Assembly (NCBI GenBank): GCA_041659405.1
Contig: JBAZYK010000009.1
Location: 47,107 to 79,106, forward strand
DNA length: 32,000 nucleotides
DNA from: Candidatus Altimarinota bacterium
GTDB lineage: Bacteria > Patescibacteriota > Gracilibacteria > UBA1369
Reading direction: 5' to 3'
Part shown: piece after piece, positions 2,850-32,000 of the stretch
Layout: every line of letters starts with the position of its first letter
Numbering within the stretch: the first letter of the stretch is position 1
Program-made: the position numbers and the translations under genes
Notes under the pieces: model-generated
The model's input: the letters and a program-made list of their open reading frames with translations, nothing else
The model's database searches: none
Told to the model about the DNA's origin: nothing

Positions 2850-5585
2850 TTATGTTTCTCTAATTCTTTTAACTGTCTCAATCATTTGCGCAAAGTTGCC
2901 GGAAACCCCTCCAGTTTGCGCTTTTCTGCCATTTACAAAATAATGGAGCTGATTATTTTCCAGCCAAACAAATAATTGTGTTGGGCCAAAATTGCCCCAA
3001 TCAAGTGTCACATTAGCAACCTGCTCAACCTTATTATTTTGGTCGATCTTAAAATTTATAATTCTGCCAATCGCCGCCCGTTCATTATTGTAATTGTAGG
3101 AATTGGTAATGGTATCAAACAGAATTTCGTGCTGTGAAGCCGTATCTATAGTTTTGAAATGCTGATCTTCTTCAGCCCACGCGCGAATATGTTTCATTTT
3201 TAGGGCAAATTCCGGCAGACTTTCCGCCACTCCTTCACGCATAGAACCGCCATCATAAGCCACATTTTCACGATTAACCCTGTAGCCAATGCGACCAAAT
3301 GGCAAAGCCCGAACATCAACCTTTGCATTTGGATTATTCCAATCCAATTCTACGGTGTAATCATAAGGCGGAGTCTTTTCGGTCTTCTCCACATTGCGAA
3401 CTGTCCCCGTTACTTTTTCGTGTTGTTCAAATTGGTACTTTGATCCAAGCACTTTCAGCATGACTTTTTGCAAAGCTGAACCATCATTCACCGCGCGTAA
3501 AACATCTTCTTTGCTGTTATAAGGTTCCTCAAGTTCACCACCATTATAAGAAATTTTATATTTTCCATCAGGCATTCTAAAAGCACGGAACGCCAGCATG
3601 TAGCCATTAAATAGCAAATCAAAACGTGCTCCATCGGGTTTATCCGCATAAGCATCAATTGCTCTAAGTTGATAAAGATAATTTGGATTTATCGGTTTTA
3701 AATTTTCATGATTTTTTTCAAATGCCGCTGTGATTCTTTCAGGGCTGACCGAAGCACCTTCCGGCGTTCTTGTTTTTTCCTTGGGTCGAGGCTTTTTCAT
3801 AACCCAGTCGTCGCAAATCATATGGCTATGATCGGCATAGTCTACTTTGTAATAGAGTTTCCCATTTACTTCCCGTGCCGGATTATTTGGATTAAATAAT
3901 GTCATTTCTTCTCCGGGTGCAACTGTCACTGTGCGATCAATCTTGCCTTGTTCCGTCCTGAAATAAACAATATTTCCGGGCTTAATTACAAGCTTCCCGG
4001 TATATCCCGCCAAATCAAATTTTGTAACTTCGTGTCCTTTATCCCAATCGCGTGCAATTTCATCAACTGATTCCACTGGTCTTTCGGCAGATGCCGCAGG
4101 TGTAGAAGTTGGAGTAGCTGTTGGGGCATTAGTAGGCGCAGTAGTTGGGGCCACGGCTGGACTCACTCCAAGAGCAGAAGCACCTTTTTTGCCTGCAGCC
4201 TTCTTTCCGGGAGCTTTAGCCTGCACATCCGCAGGGGCTGGCGTCACCACTTTGACTTCAGTAAGAATCCCGGCAGTTGCCAACTTTGGAACCTTTGCGG
4301 CAGGATTAACGTGCCCCTTGTCCAAAGTAGCCCTGATAAGATTGTTCGCTTTGGCTTCCACCACTTTGTTTTCCAATAGATCAAAACCATCCTTCTTAAT
4401 TTTTGCCTTAATTTTTGCATCATCATTCAAATCCAACATTTCTTTAACTAACGGATACAATGGATCATTAATATCAATTTTAAATTGCTCTATTAATTTT
4501 CTAGCCGTGTCATTAAAAGTTGCAATATTTTGCCTTAAAACCGTCAATCTTAATTCTTTTTCCGCCTCTTCCAATAAGTTTCGCGCGGATACTTCGGAAT
4601 GAATTTTATCAAGTGTCTCAGGCTTCATAATATCTTCCACAACTCCTCCATGAATAAAATCAAACTTCAATTCACTTTGCAATTTTTCAGCTTTTCTCAC
4701 GAAAGCCTGAATTTGCCCTTTGCTGATCTCCACTTCCGCTAATGAGTCCGTTAAAAGAGGAATATCCAGTAGCACCTGTTTGTCAGAGCCCCAACTTCCT
4801 CTCCCTTTTCCTTTTCCGGATGTAGCATCTTTTATTTGTTCTAAAGTATCCTCACGAAATTCATCAAATTTAGCCGGGAATTTCTTTTTTGCGCCGTTAA
4901 AAAGGCCTACAAAATAAGCTTTTTCACGCGCGTCCAGGTTCAGATGGGAAAGCTCCTGTTCATATTCGGCAAAATTGGCGATTTTTTTAACCACATCGGT
5001 ATCCAGCTTTGTCCCCATGGTCCAACCCTCACTGGATTTATCAAATGCCGCTTTAAATTTGCCATAAGCCTCATTAGCAGAGGCCTTATCATACATTCCT
5101 AAGCCCGTAAGATACCCAACAACAGATTGATAAGCTTCCCCGTCTTTGTCAGTGCCTTCATAGTCATCAATGCCACCATCTTTTGGTTCAGCCAGCTCTT
5201 CTGCATATTTTACCGCCTCATCAAATTTGTTAGCCTTATTTGGAACAATCTCACTATAAAGTTTATTTAAATCATCGCTTACTTCACGAATCAATGCCTT
5301 TTTATCTTCCTTTTCTTTAAGATCTAACCCTATGCTTTTAAGCTGGTGTTTGTCTTTCAACTTGCCAATTTTAGACTCGATTGATCTTGGATTTGGTCCT
5401 CTTGCGGTTGCCAAAGTACGAATACGTTCAGCCGATTCATTTACGGCTTTATCAAATTCCTGTTTAGAAAAATCCGGCTTCTTTTCCAGTTCAGAAACTT
5501 CCTGAGTCACATATGCCTGTTCACGCGACTGCTCGGGTTTGTTTTGAAATACGAGTCTGTTTGGTGAGAAAAAATGTATTTTCAT
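2850..5585 (-). CDS. large multidomain hypothetical protein (911 aa): charged helical N-terminal half, A/P/T/K-rich linker, SH3-like segment, repeated C-terminal modules
   Basis: Long uninterrupted ORF. The linker is APGKKAAGKKGASALGVSPAVAPTTAPTNAPTATPTSTPAAS (about nt 4077-4244). C-terminal modules share V.LDW.N...Y.VN...GG patterns. No signal peptide is evident. Confidence 0.8.
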   Translation of the reverse strand: MKIHFFSPNRLVFQNKPEQSREQAYVTQEVSELEKKPDFSKQEFDKAVNESAERIRTLATARGPNPRSIESKIGKLKDKHQLKSIGLDLKEKEDKKALIREVSDDLNKLYSEIVPNKANKFDEAVKYAEELAEPKDGGIDDYEGTDKDGEAYQSVVGYLTGLGMYDKASANEAYGKFKAAFDKSSEGWTMGTKLDTDVVKKIANFAEYEQELSHLNLDAREKAYFVGLFNGAKKKFPAKFDEFREDTLEQIKDATSGKGKGRGSWGSDKQVLLDIPLLTDSLAEVEISKGQIQAFVRKAEKLQSELKFDFIHGGVVEDIMKPETLDKIHSEVSARNLLEEAEKELRLTVLRQNIATFNDTARKLIEQFKIDINDPLYPLVKEMLDLNDDAKIKAKIKKDGFDLLENKVVEAKANNLIRATLDKGHVNPAAKVPKLATAGILTEVKVVTPAPADVQAKAPGKKAAGKKGASALGVSPAVAPTTAPTNAPTATPTSTPAASAERPVESVDEIARDWDKGHEVTKFDLAGYTGKLVIKPGNIVYFRTEQGKIDRTVTVAPGEEMTLFNPNNPAREVNGKLYYKVDYADHSHMICDDWVMKKPRPKEKTRTPEGASVSPERITAAFEKNHENLKPINPNYLYQLRAIDAYADKPDGARFDLLFNGYMLAFRAFRMPDGKYKISYNGGELEEPYNSKEDVLRAVNDGSALQKVMLKVLGSKYQFEQHEKVTGTVRNVEKTEKTPPYDYTVELDWNNPNAKVDVRALPFGRIGYRVNRENVAYDGGSMREGVAESLPEFALKMKHIRAWAEEDQHFKTIDTASQHEILFDTITNSYNYNNERAAIGRIINFKIDQNNKVEQVANVTLDWGNFGPTQLFVWLENNQLHYFVNGRKAQTGGVSGNFAQMIETVKRIRET

Positions 5586-10684: not shown

Positions 10685-11776
10685 CTACCTCTTCCCCTTC
10701 AAACTAGCTTCAATAAACCCGTCCAGCTCGCCATCTAAGACACTGCCGGTATCGTGTTCCTCGTGCTCCGTACGATGATCTTTTACCATGGTGTAAGGAT
10801 GCAAAACGTAAGACCTAACCTGATTTCCCCAGGAAGTTTCTACGCGTTCACCTTTAATCGCCGCAATTTCCGCCACCTGTTGTTTCTCCATTAAATCCAT
10901 CAGTTTCGCATTCAAAACTTTCATGGCGCGTTCCTTATTTTGCAGCTGCGAGCGCTCGTCCTGACAAGTAACCACAATGCCCGACGGAATATGAGTTATG
11001 CGCACCGCCGAAGAAGTTTTATTCACATTTTGACCACCCGCTCCACCGGATCTATATGTATCCACACGCAAATCATCTTTTTTAATTTCAGCCATATGTT
11101 CTTCCGGAATCTCCGGCAAAATTTCCACTTTAGCAAAAGACGTTTCACGTGAGTGCTTAGCGTTAAATGGCGATTGGCGCACCAGTCTGTGTACCCCATT
11201 TTCGCCCTTCAAATAGCCATAAGCCAGATATCCTGAAATCAACAAAGTTGCCGATTTTAAGCCAACTTCTTCCCCCATCGACTTATCAAAAATTTCCACC
11301 GACCAACCCTGCTTTTCCGCATAGCGCGTATACATGCGCAGCAACATCTCCGCCCAGTCATGGGCATCTTTGCCACCTGTCCCCGCGTGGATCGCTAAAA
11401 TCACATTATATTGATCGTATTTGCCATTTAAAAAGGTCGAGATCTCCAGTTTATGCCAATCTGCTTCCAAAGCCGCGACCATCTGCTTAAATTCCTCTCC
11501 ACTGGCCGCATCGTCCTCCACCCTAATCGTCGGCAACAAAGCAATAAGCTCGCCACAATCTTTTTGAATTTTTTCCCAGCGCTGAATTTCTTTTTGCAAA
11601 TCGCTCAATTCTTTACTGGTTTTTTGGGCACGTTCCTGATTATTCCAAAAGCCTTCCCCCTGCGTTAAAGTCATCAATTCGGCCACCCGCTTTTGCAAAT
11701 TTCCCAAGTCCACAGCCTTTAAAGCGTGATCAATCTCTTCGCGGATCGTTTCCAATTTTTGTTTATATTCGTGCAT
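10685..11776 (-). CDS. prfB: peptide chain release factor 2, encoded in one frame (no +1 frameshift site)
   Basis: Contains the RF2-specific SPF tripeptide (RQSPFNAKHSRETSF) and GGQ (SGGAGGQNVNKT). The N-terminal region MHEYKQKLETIREEIDHALKAVDLGNLQKRVAEL is contiguous with the rest of the protein. The track ORF's extra 16 codons start at TTG, so I prefer ATG 11776. Confidence 0.92.
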   Translation of the reverse strand: MHEYKQKLETIREEIDHALKAVDLGNLQKRVAELMTLTQGEGFWNNQERAQKTSKELSDLQKEIQRWEKIQKDCGELIALLPTIRVEDDAASGEEFKQMVAALEADWHKLEISTFLNGKYDQYNVILAIHAGTGGKDAHDWAEMLLRMYTRYAEKQGWSVEIFDKSMGEEVGLKSATLLISGYLAYGYLKGENGVHRLVRQSPFNAKHSRETSFAKVEILPEIPEEHMAEIKKDDLRVDTYRSGGAGGQNVNKTSSAVRITHIPSGIVVTCQDERSQLQNKERAMKVLNAKLMDLMEKQQVAEIAAIKGERVETSWGNQVRSYVLHPYTMVKDHRTEHEEHDTGSVLDGELDGFIEASLKGKR

Positions 11777-11922
11777 AACGCGGCCCGAAGGGCTGCTTAT
11801 AAAAATAAAGTGGCGCCCCGCCAAGCCAAGGTGAATCCATCAGAAGCAGTTTAGCAAAAATTTACATTTTGTTCATCTCTAAAAATTAAGATGAACTCAA
11901 CCGGATAATTTTTTCAACAACA

Positions 11923-27235: not shown

Positions 27236-29014
27236 ATGCAAACCTGCTCAGCCTGCCAATCGCAATTCACAATCACTCCGGAAGAAATAAAATTTATCGA
27301 CAAAATAAGTCCCATTTTTGAAGGCAAAAAATTTCCAATTCCGGCACCTGCCATTTGCCCGGATTGTCGCTTGCGCACGCGCACCGCACACCGCAACGAG
27401 CAATACATGTACATGAATAAATCCGCAAATACCGGCGAATCTTTGCTTTCACTTTATTCTCCTGATACCGATTGGGGCAAAAAATATAAAATTGTCACCG
27501 ACTCGGAGTGGTGGAGTGACAAATGGGATGGTACCGATTTTGGCCGTGATTTCGATTTTAATCGACCATTTTTTGAACAATTTGCGGAGCTTTGTCGTGA
27601 TATTCCTCACGTTAATTTAATTCAGGTTGGCAACGAAAATTCGCCATTTACCACCGGCACCGGATACTGCAAAAACTGCTATCTGATCAACTGTTCCGAA
27701 AATTCTCAGGATTGTTATTATGGCAAACTTGTTCAGGGTTGTACCGATGCCATGGACTGCAGTTATGCCTATGATTCCGAGCTTTTATACGAATGTTTTT
27801 ACGTGACCAAATGTTACGATTGCAAATATGTTTATTACAGCCAAAATTCGTCCGAGTGCTGGTTTAGCGAAAATTTAAAAGGCTGCAGCAACTGTTTTTT
27901 ATGCACAAATTTAAGCAACAAACGGTACTATTTCATGAATCAACCTCTTGAAAAAGGACAGTACGAAGCCAAAATGAAAGAGTTTTTAGGCTCCGCTCAA
28001 AATGTGGAAAAAGCCAAAGCCATTCTTGATGACATGCGCAAAAAACGCATTCACAAATATGCCACGATTATTAATTCCGAAAATTCCACCGGCGACTTTT
28101 TAACCGGCTGCAAAAACTGCACCGATTGTTATGACGTGAATGATAGTGAGGACAGCAAGTATGTGACCGTTGGCGTAAATGTAAAAGACAACTTCGACTG
28201 TTCAAACATGTATTTAAAGCCGGAACTAAGCTATCAGGTACTTGGAACAATTGGAACCTATAACGTAATTTTCAGTCTCTACATTTTTAATTCTCAGGAC
28301 GTAATGTACAGCGAATTTTGTTATAACAGCAAAAATCTTTTCGGCTGTTCCGGGCTTCGCAAAAAGCAATATTGCATTTTCAATAAACAATATACCAAAG
28401 AAGAATATGAAAAACTTGTGCCAAAAATAATCGAGCACATGCAGAAAACCACTTTGCGAAATGGTGGATCTTTAACAGGATCCTCAGCCTGTGAATGGGG
28501 CCAATATTTTCCGGTTAAATACTCCCCTTTTGGCTATAACGAAACAGTTGCCCAGGAATATTTGCCGCTTACAAAAGAGCAGGCCATCGCTAAAGGCTAT
28601 CACTGGAAAGATCCGGATAATCGCGAATACAAGCCTCAAACCTACAGCGTTCCGGCCGACATTAAAGACGTCAAAGATGAAATAACCAATCAGGTTCTGG
28701 CCTGCAAAAATGTTTTGAATGACACATCGGGTGATGCTTTGAATGCCACTGAGCCAGCCAAACTCTGTGGCCGCAATTACAAAATTATTCCGCAAGAACT
28801 TCGCCGCCTGCGCAATTTAAATTTGCCAGTCCCGACTAAGTGTCCGGATTGCCGCCACATGGACCGTATGAAGCTCAGAAATGCCCGTAAACTCTACGAT
28901 CGCACATGCGCCAAGTGTAACGCCACTATTAAGACCACCTTCGCCCCAGACCGCTCCCGCTCAGGCGGGAAAATCGTCTATTGCGAAAAGTGCTACCTGC
29001 AAGCGGTTTACTGA
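27236..29014 (+). CDS. Cys-rich repeat protein with N- and C-terminal CxxC zinc-ribbon modules (conserved hypothetical, CPR-type)
   Basis: 592 aa. N-terminus: CSACQ...ICPDCRLRTRTAHRNEQYMY. C-terminus: KCPDCRHMDRMKLRNARKLYDRTCAKCN...VYCEKCY. The centre has two blocks of short Cys-containing repeats (YCKNCYLINCSENSQDCYYGKLVQGCTDAMDCSYAYDS...; GCKNCTDCYDVNDSEDSKY...). Confidence 0.8.
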   Translation: MQTCSACQSQFTITPEEIKFIDKISPIFEGKKFPIPAPAICPDCRLRTRTAHRNEQYMYMNKSANTGESLLSLYSPDTDWGKKYKIVTDSEWWSDKWDGTDFGRDFDFNRPFFEQFAELCRDIPHVNLIQVGNENSPFTTGTGYCKNCYLINCSENSQDCYYGKLVQGCTDAMDCSYAYDSELLYECFYVTKCYDCKYVYYSQNSSECWFSENLKGCSNCFLCTNLSNKRYYFMNQPLEKGQYEAKMKEFLGSAQNVEKAKAILDDMRKKRIHKYATIINSENSTGDFLTGCKNCTDCYDVNDSEDSKYVTVGVNVKDNFDCSNMYLKPELSYQVLGTIGTYNVIFSLYIFNSQDVMYSEFCYNSKNLFGCSGLRKKQYCIFNKQYTKEEYEKLVPKIIEHMQKTTLRNGGSLTGSSACEWGQYFPVKYSPFGYNETVAQEYLPLTKEQAIAKGYHWKDPDNREYKPQTYSVPADIKDVKDEITNQVLACKNVLNDTSGDALNATEPAKLCGRNYKIIPQELRRLRNLNLPVPTKCPDCRHMDRMKLRNARKLYDRTCAKCNATIKTTFAPDRSRSGGKIVYCEKCYLQAVY

Positions 29015-30432: not shown

Positions 30433-30612
30433 CTAAGCTTTTTTTGTAGGCAGAATTTTATACATTCCGGTACCGCAAACGCTGCATTTACCCTTGACGG
30501 CTTTGCGTCCTTTTTTGCCGAATTCTACCTCTTCATAACCTTGTACCATTTCTCTTTTTTCTTTACATTTAACGCAATATCCCTGCATTACTATTACTTC
30601 ATCTTTTGCCAT
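30433..30612 (-). CDS. DUF5679-like small zinc-ribbon protein (59 aa)
   Basis: Own translation: MAKDEVIVMQGYCVKCKEKREMVQGYEEVEFGKKGRKAVKGKCSVCGTGMYKILPTKKA. The CxxC...CxxC spacing and the K(N/K)GR.A.KG.C..CGT motif match DUF5679 as I recall it. It falls below the 60-aa cutoff of the ORF track. Confidence 0.7.
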   Translation of the reverse strand: MAKDEVIVMQGYCVKCKEKREMVQGYEEVEFGKKGRKAVKGKCSVCGTGMYKILPTKKA

Positions 30613-30746
30613 AACAAAGAAATTAAAAATTATAAATTGATTCTACCCTATAAGACGAATAGCTTCAAACTCTTTCATTTGCAATATTGCACAGAAATTG
30701 ACTGGATTCTTAAAAACACCCATCCAATCCCAAACGCCTGTATTGA

Positions 30747-30773
30747 AATGGTCGGGGTGAAAGGATTCGAACC
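30747..30773 (-). repeat. orphan copy of the tRNA-Pro 3' end (att-like direct repeat)
   Basis: The 27-nt sequence AATGGTCGGGGTGAAAGGATTCGAACC is identical to 31480-31506. Adjacent sequence (CCGGAAGCTCAACC...) cannot complete a T-stem or a tRNA. Confidence 0.85.
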
Positions 30774-30780
30774 CGGAAGC

Positions 30781-31116
30781 TCAACCGCCGGTATTCCTGG
30801 CAGCATAATTGAAACTATAAAAATATTTCTGCCAGCTTTCATCTGATGACCCATAGATATTTTCACCAAAAAAGTAATCCGCCCAAACCTCCCGCGCCCT
30901 GGCAACCTCCCGCAAACGATGAATATTTTTAGGATCTGCCATCGTAAGATCAAAGAGCTCCAAAGCTCTATCAAAAGCCAATTTAGAGTATTCCAGATTG
31001 GCTTTGTTTTTCCAGTTAATGGCACGAATCACCTCACTACCAATATTGGCCATCTGGTCAATCAACGAAAACTGAAACCATCGGCCGGAAGCCGCGCTTT
31101 GATGCTGAAAACTCAT
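30781..31116 (-). CDS. helical hypothetical protein (111 aa), second gene of the tRNA-Pro cassette
   Basis: ORF with motifs FSLIDQMANIGSEVIRAINWKNK and RALELFDLTMADPKN...YFYSFNYAAR. Its start overlaps the upstream gene's stop (ATGA at 31113-16). Confidence 0.68.
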   Translation of the reverse strand: MSFQHQSAASGRWFQFSLIDQMANIGSEVIRAINWKNKANLEYSKLAFDRALELFDLTMADPKNIHRLREVARAREVWADYFFGENIYGSSDESWQKYFYSFNYAARNTGG

Positions 31117-31457
31117 AGTTCAATCAATTTAAAAACTACCTCGAGAATTTTTGCACGAATTTTCGGATCATCAACGCCCCTCGAACGATTTCCCCAGGAA
31201 GGACGCAAATTAATCATGGAATCAAATTCAATCAAATCATCACCGGTAAGATCAGGATAAATATTGATTCCCCAAAGATGATCCTGCTTCGAACCCAGCT
31301 CAAGCAAATAAGCCTCCTGATCTGCATGAAGATCAGCATCAACAGCCATAATCTCTTTTTCAATATCCACAACGGCTTTCACCAAATTCCCAAACATCTT
31401 ATTTGACATCTCTTTAAGCTCTTCACGTTTAACCTTTTCTTTTTGAACAATTTTCAT
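31113..31457 (-). CDS. DUF5674-like protein (114 aa; 122 aa if started at 31481)
   Basis: MFGNLVKAVVDIEKEIMAVDADLHADQEAYLLELGSKQDHLWGINIYPD...FDSMINLRPSWGNRSRGVDDP matches the DUF5674 family as I recall it. The longer form would begin directly next to the tRNA-Pro CCA end. Confidence 0.72.
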   Translation of the reverse strand: MKIVQKEKVKREELKEMSNKMFGNLVKAVVDIEKEIMAVDADLHADQEAYLLELGSKQDHLWGINIYPDLTGDDLIEFDSMINLRPSWGNRSRGVDDPKIRAKILEVVFKLIEL

Positions 31458-31481
31458 CAAACGAAAGGTTAAATATTTCAA

Positions 31482-31558
31482 TGGTCGGGGTGAAAGGATT
31501 CGAACCTTCGACCTCTTGGTCCCAAACCAAGCGCGCTAGCCAACTGCGCTACACCCCG
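31482..31558 (-). tRNA. tRNA-Pro (anticodon TGG), CCA encoded
   Basis: Manual fold: CGGGGTG-TA-GCGC-AGTTGGCTA-GCGC-G-CTTGG-TTTGGGA-CCAAG-AGGTC-GAAGG-TTCGAAT-CCTTT-CACCCCG-A-CCA. Confidence 0.92.
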
Positions 31559-31751
31559 ATAAATTGCGAGAAAACCGTTCCGAAACAAAGTGAGTTCGAG
31601 CTCCGCGAGAACGAGCGAAGTGAGGACTCTGAGATCAAAATAACAAAGTTATTTTGTATCGAAGAGAGGTTTTCCCTATTGGGTAAATTGCGAGATTTGC
31701 GATCCGAAACGTATCGAGGAGAGCAAATCCCTATTCTGATAAATTGTGAGA
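31559..31751. repeat. tandem ~56-bp repeat (2 full copies plus a partial third) abutting the tRNA-Pro 5' end; the first copy carries a 69-bp insertion
   Basis: (A/G)TAAATTG(C/T)GAGA at 31559, 31683 and 31739. CCGAAAC at 31580 and 31704. GTATCGA(A/G)GAGAG at 31656 and 31711. TCCCTATT at 31673 and 31728. The insertion spans 31587-31655. Confidence 0.7.
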
Positions 31752-32000
31752 AACCCACCCTTTTTAAGTGCGCTGAAAACTGTTCCTAGTTTTCAACGCC
31801 TATTATTTATAGGCAAAACTTGCGCCAAAGTCAATGATTCATGTTTCCGGCATTTCTACTTTCCGGTTAGAAGTGGGATCATACGCTTTTTGGTTTGAAT
31901 AAATTAAATCGCTAGACATAGAGCTGAACAATGCGATATAAAAAGAAATCAACATCACTCACCCCACGAACCAGTAATCTGAATCCTTTTAATCTGGCAT

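Follow-up and report, generated by a model that had tools for sequence, protein, structure and literature searches.

A two-gene unit between tRNA-Pro(TGG) and its displaced 3' end: a possible promoterless cassette moved in trans

Introduction

Integration of mobile DNA into tRNA genes is textbook knowledge, and the elements known to do this bear an integrase and are kilobases long. What, then, should one make of a unit of well under a kilobase, with no recombinase, that lies where such an element would be expected to lie? The question is raised by a 32-kb stretch of a 79-kb contig from a Candidatus Altimarinota bacterium (assembly GCA_041659405.1, contig JBAZYK010000009.1, positions 47,107 to 79,106; here called the window and numbered from its first letter), in which an intact tRNA-Pro(TGG) gene is followed by two small genes, one for a DUF5674 protein (gene 1) and one for a 111-aa helical protein (gene 2), and then by a second, detached copy of the tRNA 3' end. 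The sub-kilobase att-flanked insertion is clean and is verified here: relatives of this bacterium carry the empty site. The same gene pair recurs in other phyla, both at the ends of tRNA genes and within duplicated target sequence, a behavior that is undescribed as far as the searched literature shows. With regard to its origin, the reading that we favor, with modest confidence, is that the 733-bp unit is a horizontally acquired promoterless cassette that entered by a Campbell-type insertion at tRNA-Pro(TGG) and was moved in trans by an enzyme encoded elsewhere.

Results

A tRNA-Pro gene and an orphan copy of its 3' end

The 27-mer AATGGTCGGGGTGAAAGGATTCGAACC is present in two exact copies in direct orientation (Table 1) and nowhere else in the window, with up to 3 mismatches allowed. 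The start-to-start distance of the two copies is 733 bp, and when mismatches are admitted the repeat lengthens to 33 nt (31/33 identical; 30741-30773 and 31474-31506). None of 100 dinucleotide shuffles gave a match (0 expected by chance). The right copy spans 2 bases of the 5' T-stem strand, the T-loop, the 3' T-stem strand, the acceptor 3' strand, the discriminator and the CCA of the intact gene. The left copy yielded no tRNA-like match in a covariance scan (cmscan), even at E<=10, and because the DNA on its 5' side encodes the conserved C-terminus of gene 2, no T-stem can be built there (2/5 pairs). The left copy is genuinely an orphan rather than a decayed tRNA.

Two more trivial origins of this arrangement were considered and rejected. 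A decayed tandem tRNA-Pro duplicate would be expected to leave some tRNA-like residue 5' of the fragment; the scan detected none at the same threshold, and the flank is gene 2 coding sequence. An assembly chimera is at odds with the agreement among contigs of three separate samples (one from ENA, two from Logan), in which the junction running from the pair through the orphan to the DUF5679 gene is 100% identical; both Logan contigs open, ahead of the right copy, with authentic T-stem sequence.

Between the repeats lie only the DUF5674 gene and the gene for the helical protein, which are translationally coupled through an ATGA overlap at 31113-31116, and Pfam detected no recombinase among the real open reading frames (ORFs) of the window. 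An initial annotation of this DNA had already proposed the exact repeat ending an intact tRNA-Pro(TGG), the orphan left copy whose flank cannot form a T-stem, the coupled pair of a DUF5674-like and a helical protein, and the lack of a recombinase. All of these were borne out, by ARAGORN, Rfam and the shuffles for the first, by cmscan for the second, and by Pfam and the five-helix AlphaFold model for the remainder.

Relatives carry the empty site

Two relatives, L101 (GCA_964582265.1) and L102 (GCA_020049755.1), were found by protein search with the flanking HI0933-like oxidoreductase. They are syntenic with the window, their HI0933 proteins being 71-73% identical and their DUF5679 proteins 92% identical to those of the window, followed by a pilin gene and MurB. 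Both have a tRNA-Pro(TGG) gene that equals that of the window at 77/77 positions, and in both the DUF5679 gene stands 153-158 nt behind it; the 8-11 kb fetched of these two genomes contain no DUF5674 pair. In the window it is the orphan that lies 134 nt from the DUF5679 start, which is the expected place of the native tRNA end. Therefore, the 733-bp unit, consisting of the pair and one repeat copy, is an insertion/deletion difference exactly at the tRNA 3' end, and the attL/attR-type footprint that the initial annotation had recognized at this place now has its empty counterpart.

The 15 nt past the intact tRNA (TTGAAATATTTAACC) agree with the native trailer of the relatives at 12/15 positions, and the trailer of the orphan does not. 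The match fits incoming DNA that carried a tRNA-Pro 3' end together with its trailer from a related donor.

The search for still closer relatives gave less. In a collection of 5.8 billion proteins the cassette proteins have no homologue above 80% identity, and HI0933 has an 89% relative there, which is a weak hint that the nearest relative is without the pair. The contig of L100, a genome of ~92% nucleotide identity, stops within DUF5679, short of the site. A metagenome scan with the HI0933 protein returned only relatives of 53-62% identity with no synteny, and an exact-protein search with the DUF5679 neighbor returned the same strain only.

As to the DUF5679 gene itself, a promoter scan placed a promoter-like site at 30640-30668. 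We note that this protein of 59 aa is 92% identical in the relatives although the flanking enzyme is only ~72% identical, a strong conservation for a tiny protein encoded beside tRNA-Pro.

The two cassette genes

Gene 1 matches PF18924 over its full length (120.6 bits against a cut-off of 27; profile positions 4-109 of 109), its AlphaFold 2 model has a pLDDT of 83.7, and its ATG lies 24 nt past the tRNA-Pro 3' end. It stops where its homologues stop. Gene 2 has no family in Pfam or NCBIfam, and its tail NTGG* departs from the homologues ~22 nt before the orphan repeat. Neither protein found a match in PDB (by sequence profiles or by Foldseek), BFVD, PADLOC, PHROGs or NCBIfam, no DNA-binding domain was detected in either, and no relatives of gene 2 were found on IMG/VR viral contigs. 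The literature searched held no paper mentioning DUF5674 or PF18924. The initial annotation had suggested, as inference only, a toxin-antitoxin or abortive-infection cargo; the searches of Pfam, NCBIfam, PADLOC, PDB, Foldseek, BFVD and IMG/VR lent it no support, and apart from the gene architecture nothing would seem to speak for such a role.

The NCBI label Gracilibacteria, a group known to read UGA as glycine, prompted consideration of an alternative genetic code, which was rejected. Release factor 2 is encoded in the window (prfB, 467 bits, 10685-11824, minus strand) and the end of gene 1 matches those of its homologues, so that TGA is a genuine stop here. The name 'Candidatus Gracilibacteria' given at NCBI to this metagenome-assembled genome is probably used in a broad sense.

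The pair is mobile and recurs beside tRNA genes

Relatives of gene 2 were found in at least 581 species-level genomes at 52-67% identity, in taxa that include Patescibacteria, Margulisiibacteriota, Saganbacteria, Omnitrophota, WOR-3, Planctomycetes, Acidobacteria, Bacillota and a Bathyarchaeon. DUF5674, of which at least 8000 homologue clusters exist, lies immediately upstream of gene 2 in ~70 of the best 80 loci. The mean column identity of the two proteins is 65% and 75%, with many invariant polar residues. The pair is mobile: its closest homologues (74-80% identity) stand in differing genomic contexts, and 248 neighboring ORFs fell into more than 300 Pfam families, none of which recurs in more than four. 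Integrases are not recurrent neighbors within 3 kb of the pair in ~85 loci.

The recurrent neighbor is the tRNA gene. Within 250 nt of the pair we counted 11 tRNAs against 1.0 expected (80 loci, with the expectation taken from the rest of the same loci). A tRNA stands directly upstream on the same strand in the window and in seven further loci, at distances of 5-216 nt between the tRNA 3' end and the start of gene 1: Pro-TGG at 24 nt in the window and at 12 nt in L104, Pro-CGG at 85 nt in L106, Pro-GGG at about 22 nt in L004, Ser-GCT at 22 nt in L016, Ser-GGA at 5 nt in L032, Arg-TCT at 30 nt in L110 and Ala at 216 nt in L080. A functional link of the pair to tRNA enzymes was considered separately and rejected, such enzymes making up ~3% of the neighbors, which is roughly what one would expect of a small genome.

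In L104, the pair and a gene for a GNAT acetyltransferase are flanked by tRNA-Pro(TGG) (2575-2651) and tRNA-Pro(CGG) (3959-4036), which share an identical 33-nt 3' end and constitute a natural long direct repeat.

The 1-Mb WOR-1 contig L012 offers a parallel to the window. There, a tRNA-Asn on the strand opposite to the pair ends ~10-22 nt past gene 2, and 40 nt upstream of gene 1 there is a diverged copy of its T-loop-to-acceptor part (18/21 identical), the repeats being spaced 743 nt apart; this fragment is the sole non-tRNA match in 1.2 Mb scanned. L012 is a second and older instance of the footprint: the T-loop boundary is shared, the tRNA is another and the pair is inverted. The initial annotation had tied its integration reading to tRNA fragments accompanying the pair in other genomes, and this orphan tRNA-Asn fragment, together with the tRNA-adjacent loci, strengthens that reading.

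Other kinds of target are seen as well. In L069, a 41-nt repeat (core 25/27; 3640-3680 and 4341-4381, spacing 701 nt) brackets the pair and consists of the tyrS 5' end, namely the ribosome-binding region and the first 9 codons including the start codon. Gene 1 there uses the native tyrS start codons (MPKVITDEK), and the second copy restores tyrS. We also observed the pair directly upstream of tyrS in L013 and of serS in L109. In L037, from Saganbacteria, the repeat is ~62 nt long (3557-3618 and 4328-4390; 19 nt exact, ~77% identical overall, spacing 771 nt). Its copies contain, on the opposite strand, a 14-codon ORF, M(N/S)(H/R)V(T/S)(D/A)EDKKHI(C/Y)G(G/E); the differences between the copies change six codons and leave both short ORFs open. 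The 16-17-nt repeats of L013 and L053 are weak cases, similar scores being reached by controls.

Overall, a repeat score of at least 16 was reached in 5/67 loci against 4/644 same-locus shifted controls (p 6e-4), and most loci have no flanking repeat. The spacing of the repeats is 694-771 nt in all bracketed cases except the weak L053 (845 nt), and this uniformity indicates that the mobile unit is just the two genes. No conserved non-coding ends and no inverted repeats were found inside the flanking repeats across loci.

Expression of the pair

Among 67 loci, the pair is co-directional with the upstream gene in 48 and not in 19, and it follows the upstream gene by less than 60 nt in 20/67; co-direction and tight spacing fit a promoterless hitch-hiker. 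In the window, the sigma-70-like site of Table 1 is the sole plausible promoter for both the tRNA and the promoterless pair. The pair is probably transcribed by read-through from it, considering that the gap between tRNA and gene 1 is only 24 nt, and co-transcription with the tRNA appears likely because the nearest promoter conserved with the relatives is the tRNA promoter. A hairpin follows directly after the tRNA and encloses the gene 1 start codon; it may have a role in read-through or processing, read-through being conceivable because a T-run is lacking.

The 5' side of this tRNA-Pro gene is also unusual. About 231 nt (31559-31790, minus strand) separate the promoter from the tRNA start, against 16 nt from the end of the same promoter to the tRNA in L101 and L102. 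Within the segment, TCTCGCAATTTAYC occurs three times (31558, 31682, 31738) and a 25-nt unit twice; the segment folds more stably than its shuffles (z -3.55) and is without an Rfam match. The tRNA-Pro gene therefore has added DNA on both sides in this genome.

Table 1. Positions of the tRNA-Pro gene, the repeat copies, the cassette genes and adjoining features in the window
Feature	Position	Strand	Evidence
DUF5679 zinc-ribbon gene, native downstream neighbor of tRNA-Pro, outside the cassette	30433..30612	-	Pfam; synteny in L101/L102
Left 27-nt copy, attR-like: orphan, displaced tRNA 3' fragment	30747..30773	-	
Junction segment from the last conserved gene 2 codons (..AAR) to the orphan repeat; distal end of the cassette	30774..30795	-	alignment and sequence
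Cassette gene 2, 111-aa five-helix protein	30781..31116	-	AlphaFold, pLDDT 89.5
Cassette gene 1, DUF5674 protein, 114 aa, alpha/beta fold	31113..31457	-	Pfam PF18924, E 3.9e-35
Hairpin after the tRNA, no T-run	31428..31473	-	inverted repeat; -12.1 kcal/mol, z -2.7
Right 27-nt copy, attL-like: last 25 nt of the tRNA (T-loop to CCA) and 2 trailer nt	31480..31506	-	
Intact tRNA-Pro(TGG), CCA encoded; regenerated target gene, attL side	31482..31558	-	ARAGORN and Rfam tRNA (71 bits, E 6.5e-15)
Sigma-70-like tRNA-Pro promoter (TTGACT-17-TATAAA), common to the relatives	31806..31834	-	alignment

Elsewhere in the window (27236-29014, plus strand), a 592-aa cysteine-rich protein is encoded whose sole domain signal is a weak treble-clef zinc-finger match at the C-terminus. 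The 3' ends of its gene and of the convergent HI0933-like gene overlap by 7 nt, and L101 and L102 lack the 592-aa gene at this position.

Discussion

Proposed course of the insertion

Let us consider how a unit of two genes and one repeat copy might have come to lie at the end of tRNA-Pro(TGG). A circle carrying the 25-27-nt tRNA segment would recombine with the chromosomal tRNA-Pro by a single, Campbell-type crossover placed within the segment from the T-loop to the 3' end. The incoming segment would rebuild an intact tRNA at the proximal, attL-like end, and the native 3' fragment with its native trailer would be pushed to the distal, attR-like end. If this is what happened, the circular junction is predicted to read ...GAGCTTCCG, the 27-mer and GAAATATTTAACC..., and the empty-site junction to read as the tRNA body, the 27-mer and TCAATACAGGCG... 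The insertion would have been driven in trans, most likely by a tyrosine integrase of the T-loop class, or alternatively by host machinery acting on short homology.

The T-loop is reportedly a recognized sublocation for crossover, an identity block from the T-loop to the 3' end being said, after Williams in 2002, to be typical of one class of tyrosine integrases. An integrase acting in trans is favored here because of this type of identity block and because CIMEs (cis-mobilizable elements) offer a precedent. A regenerated target gene with a displaced fragment is the signature of integration into tRNA genes (PMC4383910), and CIMEs are elements that keep their att sites after loss of the integrase (PMC6323972).

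Several observations weigh against the in-trans cassette and keep our confidence in it modest. Neither an integrase nor a circular form nor an excision product was observed, and the contig extends only 14 nt past the window. Neither GC content nor skew shows an anomaly across the cassette. Where a tRNA stands upstream of the pair in the seven further loci, no orphan fragment accompanies it, and L012 has the pair in inverted orientation to its tRNA. The flanking repeats elsewhere differ in sequence and in length (16-62 nt), and the cassette has no fixed end that could be used as attP, which is awkward for a single dedicated integrase. The relatives are only ~72% identical in a flanking protein. 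On these data, acquisition of the pair in the lineage of the window looks the same as its excision from the relatives through the repeats; the presence of the pair at the same tRNA-Pro(TGG) in L104, a more distant genome, could mean that the pair was there ancestrally.

Alternative explanations

The strongest competitor, which we regard as unlikely, needs no integrase. The pair would already have stood just downstream of tRNA-Pro in a related donor, whose DNA would have been inserted by host general recombination with the highly conserved tRNA 3' end as its only homology, through a Campbell-type crossover of a circularized fragment or through homology-facilitated illegitimate recombination, and the ends of tRNA and synthetase genes would recur as the most conserved anchors between species. 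Such a route accounts well for the trailer of the intact tRNA, which at 12/15 positions resembles the native trailer of the relatives, for the presence of the pair at tRNA-Pro in four lineages, and for the lack of both a fixed cassette end and a recurrent integrase. The repeats found elsewhere are local conserved sequence (the tyrS 5' end in L069, the tRNA-Asn end in L012, the small ORF in L037), as this route would have it, and 27 nt is near the minimal length for RecA-dependent exchange in E. coli. Nevertheless, 25-27 nt is very short for efficient homologous recombination, and in two different tRNAs, those of the window and of L012, the repeat starts at the T-stem/T-loop junction, which resembles an enzymatic choice of site. 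The origin of the first repeat-flanked copy is also left unexplained by host recombination.

The initial annotation had offered two alternatives, the remnant of a decayed island and a miniature cassette moved in trans. The second is the one that we favor; the first, which supposes an integrase-bearing island at tRNA-Pro from which later deletions took all but the att cores and a two-gene module kept by addiction or other selection, appears to us decidedly improbable. The attL/attR geometry is classical and att-flanked elements without integration genes are documented as CIMEs (PMC4383910; PMC6323972), and the divergence of the gene 2 tail ~22 nt before the orphan could mark a deletion junction. 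However, only 24 nt and ~7-22 nt of non-conserved DNA are left on the two sides of the pair. The same minimal content at the same 694-771 nt spacing is seen in L012, L037, L069 and L013, and the pair stands 5-30 nt behind a tRNA in further loci; repeated decay to exactly two genes is hard to credit. Nor does an integrase recur within 3 kb of the pair in ~85 loci.

Two further scenarios place the mobility closer to the pair itself. One, a long shot in our estimate, takes the pair as a minimal mobile unit of ~0.7 kb with no recombinase of a known family, which would insert at tRNA 3' ends and other conserved gene ends, duplicate 20-60 nt of target, use its own novel machinery or a host enzyme acting on tRNA ends, and live off the promoter of its target. 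If this were true, it would amount to a widespread selfish cassette in candidate-phyla bacteria, invisible to standard finders of islands and insertion sequences (IS).

The other, still harder to believe, is a self-mobilizing mini-element whose repeats would be target-site duplications arising from staggered cuts by the cassette proteins or by a host system. Unrelated repeat sequences at unrelated targets and the two orientations relative to the target (the window versus L012) would be natural for such an element, and the proteins are both very conserved, with many invariant polar residues and no known fold relatives. Yet proteins of 111-114 aa without a nuclease or recombinase signature are unlikely transposases, terminal inverted repeats and conserved ends are lacking, the lengths of the repeats vary over 16-62 nt, and at most loci the flanking repeat is missing. 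The trailer-like sequence past the intact tRNA (12/15) is, moreover, not what pure target duplication predicts.

Finally, we give hardly any credence to the orphan as what a deletion left of a second tRNA-Pro, an isoacceptor that shared its 3' end. L104, where the pair and GNAT lie between tRNA-Pro(TGG) and tRNA-Pro(CGG) with their last 33 nt identical, might suggest such an origin. Against it, no tRNA-like signal remains, tRNA-Pro(TGG) and DUF5679 enclose no further tRNA-Pro in the closest syntenic relatives, the orphan-DUF5679 spacing equals the tRNA-DUF5679 spacing of the relatives, and the identity runs 2 nt past CCA and through 4/6 of the next nt, whereas the L104 tRNAs diverge right after CCA.

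Returning to the cassette moved in trans, we consider that such mini-cassettes, if they are moved in trans, would represent a neglected form of gene flow among uncultivated bacteria with small genomes. Mobility of this kind, if true, would also mark DUF5674 and its partner as a module that is either selected for or selfish.

Comparison with known systems

Like the islands integrated in tRNA genes (tDNA islands of the Islander type), the cassette sits between an intact tRNA and a directly oriented, displaced piece of the cognate 3' end, has an identity block that reaches from the T-loop to the tRNA terminus, and has an empty site in relatives. It differs in having no integrase or mobility genes and in its size, 0.73 kb against at least 2 kb. 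Islander applies a length criterion of 2-200 kb and discards candidates that are shorter than 2 kb or lack an integrase (PMC4383910). When the cassette is held against this definition, the tRNA with its displaced fragment and the empty site are there, and the interval contains no integrase and is shorter than the 2-200 kb range; because integrase and a size of at least 2 kb were looked for and are lacking, the cassette should not be classed as a tDNA island. In islands that integrate into the 5' end of protein genes, such as those specific for dusA (PMC4482086), that end is restored by a duplicate, as it is for tyrS in L069; these islands carry a dedicated integrase family, and the cassette has none.

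Type II toxin-antitoxin systems, too, are pairs of small genes that overlap and run in one direction; they are patchily spread across phyla and vary in context. This gene architecture is found in the cassette. Similarity of family or fold is not (Pfam, NCBIfam, PADLOC, PDB), no DNA-binding domain was detected, conservation is unusually high at 55-80% across phyla, and the window and several other loci leave no room for a promoter of the pair's own. Comparison with IS elements and transposons was equally negative, there being no match to a transposase family, no conserved ends, and repeat lengths ranging over 16-62 nt.

Integron cassettes are closer in economy. They too are small (0.5-1 kb), promoterless and poor in non-coding DNA, depend on an external promoter, and have their recombinase encoded elsewhere. 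They differ in attC, in attI with intI, and in their arrangement in an array; the insertion sites here are the ends of tRNAs and other genes and are duplicated on insertion. In the window, the flanks are tRNA-derived repeats, the neighbors are housekeeping genes, and neither attC nor an IntI-type recombinase was found.

CIMEs of Streptococcus and other Firmicutes are flanked by att sites, have lost their integration and transfer genes, have kept attL and attR, and can be moved by a related integrase (PMC6323972). The corresponding features of the cassette are two repeats identical at 27/27 positions, whose att function is putative, with no recombinase or transfer gene between them. In contrast to the cassette, CIMEs are kilobases long and derive from a known family of integrative and conjugative elements or integrative and mobilizable elements that shares their att sites. 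No parent element is known for the cassette, the surroundings of the pair in ~85 loci yielded no related element with an integrase, and its cargo is one conserved gene pair in many phyla and at many different sites. Set beside all of these systems, the cassette behaves most like a CIME or an integron-style promoterless cassette, but it has neither a parent element nor attC/attI.

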